A DNA stretch of 8,534 nt from a virus. Lineage: Duplodnaviria > Heunggongvirae > Uroviricota > Caudoviricetes. Under the pieces are notes generated by a model. It had not been told where the DNA came from. It searched no databases and was given only the letters and a program-made list of their open reading frames with translations. The translations under genes and the position numbers were made by a program. The first letter of the stretch is position 1. Each line of letters starts with the position of its first letter. The DNA is taken from IMG/VR virus record IMGVR_UViG_2778261176_000015; one strand, written 5' to 3'. Positions 1,958-8,534 of this stretch are shown here, in pieces.

Positions 1958-4405
1958 TTAACCGTCATGCATCATGCTGGCACGGGCGCGCGCACGTTTA
2001 TCCCGCTCGTATTTTTCGAGCGCATCCTGTAACTGGCGGTCAAGCTGTGTCCCCGGCGCAGTACCGCCCGTCAGGTTGATGTGATATTCGTTTTTACTCT
2101 GGTCCACATAAGAGCGACCAGCCGGTGCCGTGACCGGCTGATAAGCCTGATAGCCTGCATAAGAGCTGGTCGCCGGAATATAACCGCCGGTGCCATACGT
2201 GGCGGCATGAGTCCTTGCGGCGGTCTGGTCAAGTGTGTCTGACTCTTTGTTGATAACACCGAGTTTTTCCAGTACCCAGTCAATACCGCTGCGCAGTTTG
2301 TTGAACGCATTAAGCGGCAGCATCAGCGCGTCAGCCAGTGCCTGCCCGAACATGACGCCCGTGTCACGGCAACGGTTCAGGGTGTCCTGGGTGGCTTTAA
2401 CCGGGGCAATCAGGTTTTTAAACCACTGCCACGCGGCCTGTAACTTTTCACCCAGCCAGTCAAACAGCGGCTTAAGTGGCGTGAACAGTTCCCCCACCGG
2501 CGCAAATGCCGCTTTCAGCCCTTCAACCACACCGCCAAAGAATGCGCTGACAGGCTCCCAGTATTTACGGATAAGTAACGCTCCGGCGACAATGGCGGCC
2601 ACCACGGCCACTACCGGCCAGCTAATCGCCCCGATGGCCGTCATAACGGCACTGCCAACCGTCGTGAAAATTGCCCCCATTGCGCCTGCTGCAGCGATGA
2701 TGGCATTGATGCCGGTGATAACCGGCCAGGCTACAAGACCAATTGCACCGATGATGCCAGTAAGCGCCAGTGCGCCACCGGCAATGATGCCGATGGTTGA
2801 CGCCAGTGATTTGTTTTTCTGGATCCAGCCGTCGAGTTTTAACACATACTTTGTGGCCGTCTGCGTGAGCTTACGCAGTGCGCCTTCCTGCTGGTCAAAC
2901 AGGTCAGTCCCCACCGCCTCATAAGCGGACTGAAACTCCTTAAAGTCACCGCCTAGGTTGTCCTGCATGATATTTACCAGCTCGGCGGTCTTCCCGTCTG
3001 AGGCTTTAAACGCAGCGGTCAGTTTGTCCAGCTTTCCGGTTGAGGCGGCAGTCATCAGCACGGCGGCGGCTGAGCTGGCCTCCTCCCCGAAAATAGTTTT
3101 CATGTATTCAGCCTGCTGGGCAGTACCGAGCCGGTTTTTCTCAAAACTGGCCTGCATTTCTTTCAGAATGGTAAATACTGGCCGGGTGTTTCCCTTGCTG
3201 TCTGAGGTTTTCACACCAAGCTCTTTCAGTGCATCCCATGCTTTTCCCGTCGGTGCCTGCAGACGGCTTAACACGGCACGGCTTCCCGTCCCCGCCATTG
3301 AACCGGTAATTTTTGCATCATGCAGCGCCCCGACCATTGCGGCGGTTTCTTCAATGCTGACACCGGCATTTTTTGCCACAGGTGCGGCATAGGTCAGCGC
3401 ATCGCTCATACCGTCAAAATCGGCGGCGGTTTTGTTCATCGTCATGGAGAGAACATCCCCGATATGAGCGACCTTATCGTTTGAAAGCTGAAAGGCGGAT
3501 TTCATCCCCATCAGCAGGGCGGCGTTTTCTTCCATCGTGCGGCGGTTCGCCAGTGCCATATTCAGCGTGACCGGCGTTGCCGCCTGAATAGCCGCAACAT
3601 CTCCACCCGCTTTCGCAATGATAATCTGCGCACCGGCCGCATCATCCGCTGAGGCGGCGGTGTTGTCACCGAGCTGGCGCGCCTGCTTGCGTAGTGCAGC
3701 CATTTCGGCGGAGTCTTTTGCCACTCCGAGCACGGCCTGCAATTCTGAGTTTTTCTGCGCAAACTCATAACCGGGCATCAGCAACTTAACTCCGGTCATC
3801 GTTCCCGCCGCCGCAATCCCCACACCGGCAGCGCCTACTGAGGCCATATTTCCGGCCAGTTCCTTTCCGGCCTGATAACGCTGTTTGACTGCGTTAAGTT
3901 TTGCCTGTTGCGCACTGACACGCGCCAGCGCGTCGCGCTGACGGTTAAGCTGTGCGGTGGTTTCACTGATACGGTTTTTCAGTCCCTGCTCATCATGTGC
4001 AAGATTGCGGGTATTAATTCCCACAGCGGCCAGTTCCCGCTGCTGGCGTTTAACGGAATCCGTCAGGCGGTTATATTTCGCCTGTAAGTCCTCCGCCGCT
4101 CGCTTTGCGGATTCCAGCACTTTCGCCTGAGCACGGGTCGGACGTTCGGTGTTTTTAAACTGTGTGGCAAGGGCTTCGGCTTCCTGCCGAGCCTTTTCAA
4201 GTGCATGACCAGTCACGGCGAGCTGTGCACTGGTCTTGCGAAATCCCTCAATACGGGATGCCTGACCGTTCAGCTCGCGCAGTGATTTTTGTGTTTCCCG
4301 GATATCCCCCGACAGCGACTTACTCGCTGTGCGGATGGATTTAAACGGGCGGGATGCCTGGTCAACAGCCCTGAGCAATACCTGTAATTTTACATTGTTA
4401 CTCAT
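1958..4405 (-). CDS. T: Tail tape measure protein gpT, 815 aa
   Basis: 815-aa ORF with an Ala/Gln/Arg-rich helical N-terminal half and a long Gly/Ala/Ile-rich hydrophobic segment (about aa 533-612), typical of tape measure proteins. Its ATG (4403-4405) overlaps the E' stop (ATGAGTAA). Confidence 0.9.
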   Translation of the reverse strand: MSNNVKLQVLLRAVDQASRPFKSIRTASKSLSGDIRETQKSLRELNGQASRIEGFRKTSAQLAVTGHALEKARQEAEALATQFKNTERPTRAQAKVLESAKRAAEDLQAKYNRLTDSVKRQQRELAAVGINTRNLAHDEQGLKNRISETTAQLNRQRDALARVSAQQAKLNAVKQRYQAGKELAGNMASVGAAGVGIAAAGTMTGVKLLMPGYEFAQKNSELQAVLGVAKDSAEMAALRKQARQLGDNTAASADDAAGAQIIIAKAGGDVAAIQAATPVTLNMALANRRTMEENAALLMGMKSAFQLSNDKVAHIGDVLSMTMNKTAADFDGMSDALTYAAPVAKNAGVSIEETAAMVGALHDAKITGSMAGTGSRAVLSRLQAPTGKAWDALKELGVKTSDSKGNTRPVFTILKEMQASFEKNRLGTAQQAEYMKTIFGEEASSAAAVLMTAASTGKLDKLTAAFKASDGKTAELVNIMQDNLGGDFKEFQSAYEAVGTDLFDQQEGALRKLTQTATKYVLKLDGWIQKNKSLASTIGIIAGGALALTGIIGAIGLVAWPVITGINAIIAAAGAMGAIFTTVGSAVMTAIGAISWPVVAVVAAIVAGALLIRKYWEPVSAFFGGVVEGLKAAFAPVGELFTPLKPLFDWLGEKLQAAWQWFKNLIAPVKATQDTLNRCRDTGVMFGQALADALMLPLNAFNKLRSGIDWVLEKLGVINKESDTLDQTAARTHAATYGTGGYIPATSSYAGYQAYQPVTAPAGRSYVDQSKNEYHINLTGGTAPGTQLDRQLQDALEKYERDKRARARASMMHDG

Positions 4406-6662: not shown

Positions 6663-7256
6663 CTATTTGTCCCGGTTGGCTAAGGGATGACACAATTTAT
6701 TCTTTGTCGCTGATGAGGGGAATTTTTTATAGAGCGTGGACAGGCCAATATCAAAAATCAGCGCCACACGTTGACGAGATTCCCCCGCAGCCAGCAACCG
6801 TCCGACCTGCTCCCACTCACTCGCGGTGAGTTTCGGACGTCTGCCACCAATACGACCTTTGGCTCTGGCTGCTTCCAGTCCGGCGCGTGTCCGCTCGACA
6901 ATGAGTTCTCGTTCCATTTCAGCCAGGGCACCCATCACATGAAAGAAAAAACGCCCCATCGGCGTGCTGGTATCAATGGCATCCGTCAGGCTGCGAAAAT
7001 TAATGCCGCGTTCGCGCAGCTCCTCAACCAGAATGACCAGATGCCGCATACTACGCCCCAGCCTGTCCAGCTTCCAGACTACCAGAGTGTCACCTGCTGA
7101 TAATGTTCTGAGCATTTTTTTCAGTCCCGGTCTGTCGGACTTCGTGCCGCTGATTTTATCCTCAAAAATCCGCTCGCATCCTGCGCACTCCATCGCGTTA
7201 CGCTGCAATTCCGTGTTCTGGTCATTTGTTGACACGCGTACATAGCCAATAAGCAT
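6663..7256 (-). CDS. Serine site-specific DNA invertase, Hin/Gin/Cin/Pin (Din) family, 197 aa
   Basis: N-terminus MLIGYVRVSTNDQ with the catalytic Ser, internal DTLVVWKLDRLGRS and MGRFFFHVMGALAEMERELIVERT motifs, and a C-terminal helix-turn-helix (GLSTLYKK). Start taken at the second ATG (7254-7256), which has AGGGGGA 5 nt upstream; the first ATG at 7262 abuts the SD with no spacer. Confidence 0.9.
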   Translation of the reverse strand: MLIGYVRVSTNDQNTELQRNAMECAGCERIFEDKISGTKSDRPGLKKMLRTLSAGDTLVVWKLDRLGRSMRHLVILVEELRERGINFRSLTDAIDTSTPMGRFFFHVMGALAEMERELIVERTRAGLEAARAKGRIGGRRPKLTASEWEQVGRLLAAGESRQRVALIFDIGLSTLYKKFPSSATKNKLCHPLANRDK

Positions 7257-7283
7257 GAGCATCCCCCTGAATAAAAACCGGAG

Positions 7284-7676
7284 ATGATGCCAGTTGCCCG
7301 TTATCTCTGCATTTTCATAAACGTTGGTTTGGGAGAAGCGGCTAAAAGGAATGTAGGGACAGGTGCGAATCAGCTACCTGATATGGGTAGTTTTATGCTT
7401 TCTGCTTCAGTTCCTGGATATCAAAAATTGCCATCCGGTTTAATTATTCAATGGGGGCCAATTGATGTTCCGCTGACGTCTCAGGACACAGTAACCTATT
7501 TTCCGATTGCATTTCCGAACAGATGTCTGCGGGTATTTGCGACTCAGGATTACACTCCCGGCAGTGCAAATGTTGGCTATATAGCTTGTGCCGGTTATAA
7601 CCAGGACCCGGTGAAATTTATTTCCAGAGCAGGCGTACCCGGTATCGGTGCTTCATTTTTCGCATTAGGGTGTTAA
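7284..7676 (+). CDS. Alternate (currently silent) tail-fibre C-terminal receptor-binding cassette; ORF fragment, about 130 codons
   Basis: Translation ...[29 protein letters not shown]...[23 protein letters not shown]... resembles phage tail-fibre tip domains. It points away from the late operon, and the nominal ATG has GGAG directly abutting it with no spacer, so it is probably expressed only after inversion fuses it to the constant fibre gene at the crossover site. Confidence 0.55.
7312..7337. other. 26-bp invertase crossover site (hix/gix/cix-like): TTCTCCCAAACC-AA-CGTTTATGAAAA on the minus strand
   Basis: Imperfect 12-2-12 dyad with AAACC/GGTTT-type inner arms and an AA/TT core at 7324-7325. 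It lies 56 bp upstream of the invertase start and inside the 5' end of the silent tail-fibre ORF, encoding IFINVGLGE. Resemblance to Din-family sites is from memory. Confidence 0.6.
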
Positions 7677-7702: not shown

Positions 7703-8143
7703 ATGAATTACATATATTCCGCGACTACAAACTCTTTCTATCCCTTGGAGATGAAAGAGGATTACACGCAAGCTGACTCATGGCCAGATGATGCTGTTGA
7801 AGTTGATGAGCAAGTGTATATTGAGTTTTCCGGATTACCGCCGAAAGGAAAAATCCGTATCGCTGGAGAAAATGGTTTTCCTGCATGGTCTGAAATTCCA
7901 CCACCAACACATGAGGAACAGATTGCTGCAGCCGAACTGAAAAAGCAGCAATTGATTAATCAGGCCAACGATTATATGAACAGTAAACAATGGGCTGGTA
8001 AAGCGGCTATTGGTCGTCTGAAAGGTGAGGAACTGGCGCAATATAATTTGTGGCTGGATTATCTGGACGCACTGGAGCTGGTCGATACTTCCAGTGCGCC
8101 AGATATTGAATGGCCTACTCCTCCGGCAGTTCAGGCCAGATGA
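7703..8143 (+). CDS. Tail fibre assembly protein (Tfa family), alternate-orientation copy, 146 aa
   Basis: GGAG SD 6 nt upstream of the ATG at 7703. C-terminus ...LWLDYLDALELVDTSSAPDIEWP matches the Tfa motif I recall from e14 TfaE (VDTSTAPDIEWP). It directly follows the alternate fibre tip cassette. Confidence 0.8.
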   Translation: MNYIYSATTNSFYPLEMKEDYTQADSWPDDAVEVDEQVYIEFSGLPPKGKIRIAGENGFPAWSEIPPPTHEEQIAAAELKKQQLINQANDYMNSKQWAGKAAIGRLKGEELAQYNLWLDYLDALELVDTSSAPDIEWPTPPAVQAR

Positions 8144-8153
8144 CATCCGGCGC
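8096..8153. repeat. Imperfect inverted repeat formed by the convergent 3' ends of the two tfa genes
   Basis: GCGCCAGATATTGAATGGCCT (8096-8116, plus strand) against GCGCCGGATGTCATCTGGCCT (reverse complement of 8133-8153), about 15 of 21 identical. Both encode APD(I/V)(E/I)WP. The two genes overlap by 29 bp (8115-8143). Confidence 0.4.
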
Positions 8154-8534
8154 GGTGCTGGTATCTGTTGCCGTCACCGCGTCAATGTAATCCAGCACAG
8201 TGTTAAGTCGGGAGGTCTCTGCCTGCATCAGCTTCCGCCCAGCCTGTAATTTCAGTTGAATCAGACTAATGGAAGCCATTGCAGTGTCAATCAGTGACTG
8301 ACGCTGTGCTTCTGCCGCGTCTACTGCGGCGTGATGCTGTGCCTCAGTATCGGTCACCCATTTCTCACCATCCCATTTATCGTATGGCGTTAATGGGGCG
8401 ATAGTGGTTGTATTTTCGGGGTAATCACCCGGAGTTGTGATTTCTTTGGCGTCTCCCGTTTCGGTGTTATAGACGATTTCTCCGCGATGGTCTGGCACAT
8501 ATTCCCATGAGTTTAAATCCGCAGAGCGGCAGAT
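8115..8534 (-). CDS. Tail fibre assembly protein (Tfa family), 5'-truncated by window end
   Basis: The reading frame is open to position 8534 (ICRSADLNSWEYVPDHRGEIVYNTETGD...), so the ORF track's Met at 8498 is a GTG and not the true start. It has the W-x-x-V-x-DHRG-x-x-VY motif seen in TfaE-like proteins and ends ...DTSTAPDVIWPELPEE with TAG at 8115-8117. Confidence 0.8.
   Translation of the reverse strand: MCRSADLNSWEYVPDHRGEIVYNTETGDAKEITTPGDYPENTTTIAPLTPYDKWDGEKWVTDTEAQHHAAVDAAEAQRQSLIDTAMASISLIQLKLQAGRKLMQAETSRLNTVLDYIDAVTATDTSTAPDVIWPELPEE

Follow-up and report, generated by a model that had tools for sequence, protein, structure and literature searches.

A pixR-identical crossover site beside a Pin-type invertase gene in the tail region of a P2-like prophage

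The tail-fiber locus and its crossover site

The window, by which we mean the whole stretch of 8,534 nucleotides that was analyzed, covers tail genes of a P2-like prophage, with ogr, D, U, the tape-measure gene, E/E', tail tube and tail sheath on the minus strand. The features around the crossover site are as follows.

6663-7256, minus strand: serine DNA invertase of the Pin/Gin type, 197 aa, transcribed away from the site (assigned from its domains and its identity to PinE)
7172-7235, minus strand: putative recombinational enhancer, two Fis-like G-N13-C 15-mers in the 5' coding region of the invertase gene
7284-7292, minus strand: extended -10-like motif TGGCATCAT (TGnCATnnT) in the invertase leader, noted for its conservation
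7312-7337, minus strand: crossover site identical to pixR (unique match, published-site identity, inversion isomers)
7312-7323, read on the plus strand: outer half-site TTTTCATAAACG
7324-7325, read on the plus strand: 2-bp core TT (AA on the minus strand)
7326-7337, read on the plus strand: inner half-site GGTTTGGGAGAA, encoding G-L-G-E
7326-7676, plus strand: alternative tail-fiber C-terminal cassette, promoterless, Gp53-like_C (PF21882, 1.3e-18; ends FFALGC*)
7703-8143, plus strand: tail-fiber assembly chaperone gene of the unjoined cassette (Caudo_TAP, 2.3e-38; annotated as tail fiber assembly protein)
8115-8534, minus strand: 3' part of a tfaE-like chaperone gene (ORF 8115-8498), running off the window end

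The reading frame of the invertase is intact, with the catalytic Ser9 within MLIGYVRVS, and Pfam recognizes both a Resolvase (3e-52) and an HTH_7 (5e-13) domain. The protein is 86% identical to PinE of e14 over 181 aa and matches the Gin structure 3UJ3 at 5e-94. Its C-terminus is 13 aa longer than that of PinE (197 versus 184 aa); the PinE alignment stops at residue 181, and the remaining 16-residue tail, SATKNKLCHPLANRDK (6663-6713, minus strand), is without a PinE counterpart.

In the orientation of the window the Gp53-like cassette at 7326-7676 is not joined to the tail-fiber gene H. The cassette proper begins at the inner half-site, whose 12 bp open the invertible segment. Each variable cassette has its own tfa chaperone gene, and the locus has two Caudo_TAP genes. 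The tfaE-like gene, which lies at 8516-9118 in the prophage of E. coli CUPF09 (L001; overall identity to the window 97.6%), is annotated there as tfaE (Caudo_TAP, 2.9e-31), and this chaperone belongs to the currently expressed, StfE-like cassette. The two tfa genes converge with a tail-to-tail overlap of 29 bp (8115-8143), as do tfaP and tfaE of e14 (L003, 2518-2546).

The initial annotation had described a 26-bp site with a 12-2-12 dyad and an AA core, and such a site is present exactly at 7312-7337: the minus strand reads TTCTCCCAAACC-AA-CGTTTATGAAAA, and the full 26-mer, TTCTCCCAAACCAACGTTTATGAAAA, occurs once in the window, at that position and on that strand. The dyad is imperfect, with the half-sites agreeing at 8 of 12 positions, and in this it resembles the published Din sites. 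When a degenerate Din consensus (TTN5AAACCNNGGTTTN5AA) was scanned allowing at most one mismatch, 7312-7337 was the sole match in the window and none of 200 dinucleotide shuffles contained a match; the site differs from the stricter TTCN4AAACCNANGTTTN4GAA at one position. Alignment to the Din-family site sequences printed in Table 3 of PMC3241671, which include pixR, gave 26/26 identity to pixR, compared with 21/26 for pixL, 20/26 for hixL, 19/26 each for cixL and cixR and 17/26 for gix. The pinE-proximal site of e14 in E. coli K-12 is likewise identical at 26/26 positions (NC_000913.3, 1209605-1209630; L003, 3606-3631) and lies 54 nt upstream of pinE. The earlier description of the site as hix/gix-like is therefore correct as to the Din family but not as to a generic hix or gix site; judged by its sequence it is pixR proper, which goes beyond mere likeness to hix or gix.

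An A/T-rich imperfect palindrome could in principle arise in coding sequence by chance and have no role in recombination. Agreement between the half-sites at just 8/12 positions would be in keeping with this, and when the loose consensus is allowed three mismatches 0.23 matches are expected per window. A chance origin is ruled out, however, because the site is identical at 26/26 positions to a published site that is used experimentally. Arguing in the same direction are the empty result with 200 shuffles at one mismatch or fewer, the fact that the place of the site beside the invertase is conserved across genera and the fact that natural inversions end at it. We regard the chance reading, whose probability is negligible, as refuted by the K-12 e14 match, the published pixR match and the natural isomers described below.

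With regard to its surroundings, the site lies upstream of the invertase gene, its near end 55 nt from the ATG at 7256 (56 bp had been given originally), and inside the mechanical ORF 7284-7676, which reads I-F-I-N-V-G-L-G-E across it. It had been placed in the 5' end of a silent fiber ORF. That it falls within coding sequence stands, but the part upstream of the core is DNA outside the invertible segment and is not fiber. The ORF as called has 130 codons and contains the Gp53-like C-terminal fiber domain; its ATG at 7284 is outside the segment.

The partner site and inversion in E. coli prophages

A second crossover site is absent from the window, where searches with the exact site (up to 3 mismatches) and with the degenerate consensus recovered 7312-7337 only. 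The partner was taken instead from E. coli prophages that are 97-99% identical to the window, in which it lies beyond the point where the window ends. In L001 and in Ecol_656 (L002), both of which are 100% identical to the window over the 26-bp site and the 55-nt leader, the partner is located at 9613-9638, approximately 1.9 kb away, in inverted orientation and within gene H, and reads TTCTCCCAAACC-AA-GGTATGCGAGAA. The partner that the initial annotation implied thus exists, outside the window. The two sites are the only Din-consensus sites in the 15.9 kb of L001/L002 (0.11 expected by chance), and no further crossover sites, as would be found in a multi-segment shufflon, were detected in that interval. 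Both sites have the same inner half-site and AA core, and their outer half-sites are unlike.

At the partner, H is read GCA TAC CTT GGT TTG GGA GAA (L-A-Y-L-G-L-G-E), while the window cassette is read AAC GTT GGT TTG GGA GAA (N-V-G-L-G-E) at its own site, so that the frame across the core is identical in H and the cassette. Inverting the segment in silico produced an intact H ORF ending in the Gp53-like cassette of the window (...FFALGC*). Joining at the 2-bp core therefore keeps the fiber frame, and the in-frame exchange of fiber C-termini at a constant/variable junction, as originally proposed, is borne out in that the flip fuses the cassette to the constant part of H. The frame survives inversion because the inner half-site and core (GGTTTGGGAGAA/TT) are common to both sites and are read Gly-Leu-Gly-Glu in both.

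Inversion at these sites occurs in nature, as seen in related E. coli prophages. Ecol_656 (L002) and strain 736 (L005), both from Puerto Rico, are 100% identical over 3000 bp of left flank and 1800 bp of right flank, and the 1902-bp segment in between is 100% identical only as the reverse complement (direct comparison gives 486/1902 positions), which is what identifies the difference as a natural inversion. The outer half-sites stay put in both isomers, and the exchange must therefore have taken place somewhere in the 15 bp that the sites share (C, the inner half-site and AA), a resolution that fits the AA core but is coarser than the core itself. We also constructed junction queries from the in-silico flip and searched them against E. 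coli genomes. The flipped junction between the constant part of H and the Gp53-like cassette was continuous in 27 E. coli records and that between the invertase and the StfE-like cassette in 765, and the arrangement of the window itself was carried by 93. EFF60 and strain 736 each have the two flipped junctions, and in these strains RefSeq annotates the fused H, with its Gp53-like end, as a 392-aa phage tail protein. There is precedent for such inversion: the P segment of e14 and the invertible loci of P2-like prophages in EPEC are phase-variable by sequencing and PCR (PMC4272514), and a 1797-bp segment of e14 is inverted by PinE, PinQ and PinR at TTGGTTTGGGAGAAGG repeats (PMC12529663).

We favor the reading, at a probability of roughly 0.93, that 7312-7337 is the invertase-proximal, pixR-type site of a Pin-family inversion switch through which a P2-like prophage swaps its fiber ends. 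Our reasons for this are: (i) the identity of the site; (ii) the intact invertase gene adjacent to it; (iii) the inverted partner with the same core; (iv) the preservation of the frame and (v) the natural isomers. It is from the 97-99% identical prophages, in which the partner can be seen, that we infer the switch as a whole. By analogy with the scheme of synapsis, cleavage and subunit rotation described for Hin (PMC3798978), one invertase dimer would bind 7312-7337 and a second the partner in H, and the two sites would synapse on a Fis-bound enhancer. Staggered cleavage of all four strands at the AA core, offset by 2 nt and proceeding through phosphoserine links, would follow, and one pair of subunits would rotate by 180 degrees before the ends are rejoined. 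Inversion swaps the C-terminal receptor-binding part of H, together with the cognate chaperone gene, and leaves the frame unbroken. In the orientation of the window the Gp53-like cassette is uncoupled and the StfE-like cassette is expressed, and the expected outcome of switching is that host range or adsorption specificity would alternate, as is known for Mu, P1 and related systems.

The site might alternatively be a fossil, derived from pix but belonging to a switch that died when the invertase, the enhancer or the partner was lost, so that the orientation is now frozen. P2-like prophages are often defective, the partner is not within the window and the invertase gene of the window differs from that of L001 at 15 of 657 nt. 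Against this, the invertase has an unbroken ORF that retains Ser9 and both domains, and the site and leader show complete identity to those of L001 and L002. L002 also has an isomer, L005, with zero substitutions between them, which points to a recent inversion event. In addition, co-resident Pin-type invertases can act in trans on such sites (PMC12529663). We consider a frozen remnant very unlikely and retain the functional switch as our working model.

The occurrence of the arrangement in other genera was examined through an invertase-based scan of species-representative genomes, which gave 62 loci, of which 30 were analyzed. In 21 of these 30 the distance from the invertase start upstream to the beginning of a pix-like site is 79-81 nt; in 25 of the 30 the frame set by the inner half-site continues for over 100 codons without a stop, and in nearly all of them G-L-G-E or G-L-G-x is what the half-site encodes. 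At about 28 loci the inner half-site supplies the Gly-Leu-Gly-Glu codons at the constant/variable junction, and it does so in front of many unrelated cassettes, StfE-like and Gp53-like ones among them, so that conservation of the DNA site is tied to that of the peptide motif.

Fourteen draft contigs, spanning at least 8 genera, stop in the homologous site or no more than 24 nt from it, at 64-131 nt from the invertase start (L006, L011, L012, L013, L018, L028, L031, L032, L033, L034, L043, L045, L048 and L049, considered over their first 1-34 nt). In most cases the end falls within the 26 bp of the site, the contigs beginning with AAACCAAC.., CCCAAAC.. or AACGTTT... Assemblies are not expected to break at repeats as short as 15 bp or less unless the reads contained both orientations, and the breaks therefore suggest, indirectly, that switches of this type were active in the cultures that were sequenced. 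Two of the 14 contigs (716 and 1233 bp) contain little beyond the invertase gene.

Two further observations from the scan concern unusual loci. In L015 and L016 (E. coli ECMA0423 and Shigella flexneri SFBU1023) the invertase homologue is 82% identical, its upstream region includes a run of 17 C some 40-60 nt before the start of the gene (locus positions ~3940-3960) and a pix-like site was not found at the usual position. In Trabulsiella odontotermitis (NZ_JNGH01000101.1, 152481-166253; L010 and L024) a single contig has two oppositely oriented invertase homologues separated by about 5 kb, both of which are accompanied by a pix-like site, and this locus may be a more complex or doubled shufflon.

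The invertase leader, the putative enhancer and the uncoupled cassette

The 5' coding region of the invertase gene contains two 15-mers of the Fis-like form G-N13-C. The first, GTGTCAACAAATGAC, occupies nt 22-36 of the gene (7221-7235 in the window) and the second, GCGCAGGATGCGAGC, nt 71-85 (7172-7186). They are spaced by 49 bp, and the center of the proximal one is 96.5 bp from the center of the crossover site; for hixL the enhancer is about 100 bp away (PMC3798978). In Din-family switches the enhancer has two Fis sites spaced by about 48 bp within the invertase gene. Synonymous codon entropy is lower over codons 8-29 than over codons 30-135 (0.61 versus 0.81; Mann-Whitney p=0.007, a statistically modest difference) and has its minimum at codons 8-11, within the first 15-mer. 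G1 is kept in 44/44 sequences for the first 15-mer and in 42/44 for the second, and C15 in 37/44 and 42/44, respectively. The first 15-mer is presumably homologous to the proximal Fis site of hin, and residues K46, K47, R50, Q150, R153 and L154 of the window invertase are what we take, from an alignment to the Hin sequence, to be the equivalents of the residues with which Hin makes its contacts. In Hin these are K47, R48, K51, Q151, R154 and L155, which contact Fis or the enhancer and are conserved in the invertases that depend on them (PMC3798978). Taken at the level of sequence, these features are suggestive, and only suggestive, of a putative Fis-bound enhancer close to the 5' end of the invertase gene, within its initial ~85 nt.

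The leader between the site and the invertase gene is also conserved. TGGCAT is identical in 18/18 diverse invertase leaders (drawn from L007-L057), the T at the ninth position of the motif is invariant and TGGCATnnT lies 20-28 nt downstream of the site in all 18. It resembles an extended -10 element and is predicted to serve in a promoter; the -35 position that it implies, at about 7307-7312, would abut the outer end of the crossover site. A strict sigma-70 scan of 7100-7500 on both strands called no promoter. A sigma-54 reading of the motif (TGGCAT-N5-xxGC) was considered and set aside, the -12 GC being present in only about 11 of the 18 leaders when counted by eye.

Several other features of the leader were noted. 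A conserved run of T follows TGGCAT at a distance of ~8-10 nt, and on the other strand the ORF leading into the cassette opens with ATGCCA, the complement of TGGCAT. A terminator-like hairpin was called at 7276-7295 on the minus strand (AACTGG..CCGGTT followed by TTTATT), just upstream of the invertase ribosome-binding site and overlapping the TGGCAT motif. A conserved leader RNA hairpin or terminator was rejected after RNAalifold returned no consensus pairs for the 18 diverse leaders.

These observations bear on the suggestion in the initial annotation that the site may overlap the invertase promoter and allow autoregulation. The site would then double as an operator, at which bound invertase would repress or otherwise modulate its own promoter. 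Overlaps of a comparable kind between site and promoter have been discussed for hin and cin. The idea would account for the invariance of TGGCATnnT in the 18 leaders and for an implied -35 element that touches the outer half-site, and it is also in keeping with the fixed spacing of 79-81 nt between site and invertase start in 21 of 30 loci. However, that spacing could equally be explained by the geometry of site and enhancer, the sigma-70 scan was negative in this region and TGGCAT may serve otherwise, its complement being the ATG of the ORF reading into the cassette. Autoregulation through the site is in our view possible but rather doubtful.

This last point raises the question of whether the uncoupled cassette is in fact silent. 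Translation of ORF 7284-7676 could yield a free receptor-binding fragment of 130 aa that has its own function, for example in blocking adsorption of other phages. An in-frame ATG followed by an open frame is present in the window, in e14 and in Shigella, RefSeq lists the ORF as a gene and the equivalent chimera of e14, StfE2, has been reported to block adsorption of T2 (PMC12529663). The ATG at 7284 does not hold up as a conserved cassette start, however. Only 13 of 31 sequences (the window plus the 30 loci) have an in-frame ATG upstream, the rest having stops or no ATG upstream of the site, which means that translating the uncoupled cassette on its own is not a general feature. Moreover, no promoter or ribosome-binding site was identified for ORF 7284-7676, and its ATG is the complement of the invariant TGGCAT, which may have been kept for the invertase promoter instead. 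Translation of a free fragment from this ORF is accordingly unlikely, and we continue to treat the cassette as silent in the orientation of the window. An extension of the same idea, which we consider quite unlikely, is that the invertase-proximal ORF is translated in either orientation and gives a free receptor-binding fragment on the host surface, resulting in superinfection exclusion or an adsorption block. If this were true, the switch would toggle a defence encoded by the prophage as well as the host range of the virion, and TGGCAT/ATGCCA would serve both strands.

Known switches and the annotation of the locus

The closest known system is the P segment of e14, which is inverted by PinE in E. 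coli K-12. In addition to the identical 26-bp site, e14 has the site at the same position (54-55 nt) and in the same orientation relative to the invertase start, a partner that likewise has the inner half-site and AA core, a segment of similar length between the repeat arms (1797 nt versus 1872 nt in the type represented by the window) and a tfaE/StfE-like cassette with convergent, overlapping tfa genes. It differs in several respects: (i) the host element is lambdoid in the case of e14 and a complete-looking P2-like prophage here (ogr, D, U, T, E, FII, FI, H, I, J...); (ii) the outer half-site of the partner is GGTTTTCGAGAG in pixL and GGTATGCGAGAA in the P2-type H; (iii) the second cassette is the StfP C-terminus in e14 and Gp53-like_C here and (iv) the StfE-like cassette is at the invertase-distal end here, unlike in e14.

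Among P2-like elements, prophages of EPEC E2348/69, Peduovirus magyaro (KC618326) and Salmonella phage MET_P1_103_31 have the gene order seen here, namely FI sheath, invertase, cassette plus tfa, tfa plus cassette and H. The layout of the phage genomes KC618326 and OQ383618 is likewise the same. These phage records cover only 73-75% of the 1935-bp query at 92-94% identity, and this partial coverage indicates that the cassettes differ. Three repeats and four variants are present at one EPEC locus, compared with the two sites found here.

More distantly, Gin/gix (Mu G), Cin/cix (P1 C), Hin/hix (Salmonella H) and Min/mix (p15B) share the 12-2-12 architecture with AAACC beside the core, and in each case a serine invertase dependent on Fis and an enhancer is encoded beside one site (PMC3798978). 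In Mu, P1 and p15B, as here, it is the fiber C-terminus that is exchanged in frame, whereas Hin switches a promoter and not a coding end. The gix, cix, hix and mix sites match the window site at only 16-20 of 26 positions, the core of gix is GA and not AA, and Min has six sites where two are found here.

The site, the enzyme family, the mechanism and the occurrence of such switches in P2-like prophages are thus already known, and nothing at this locus departs from the known kind. All of this is published, and thousands of E. coli genomes contain it. The practical value of the finding is for annotation. The correct reading of ORF 7284-7676 is that of an uncoupled C-terminal fiber cassette and not of an independent gene, and assemblies of such loci can break or turn chimeric at the crossover site. 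The true fiber gene at this locus is one with two alternative 3' ends.
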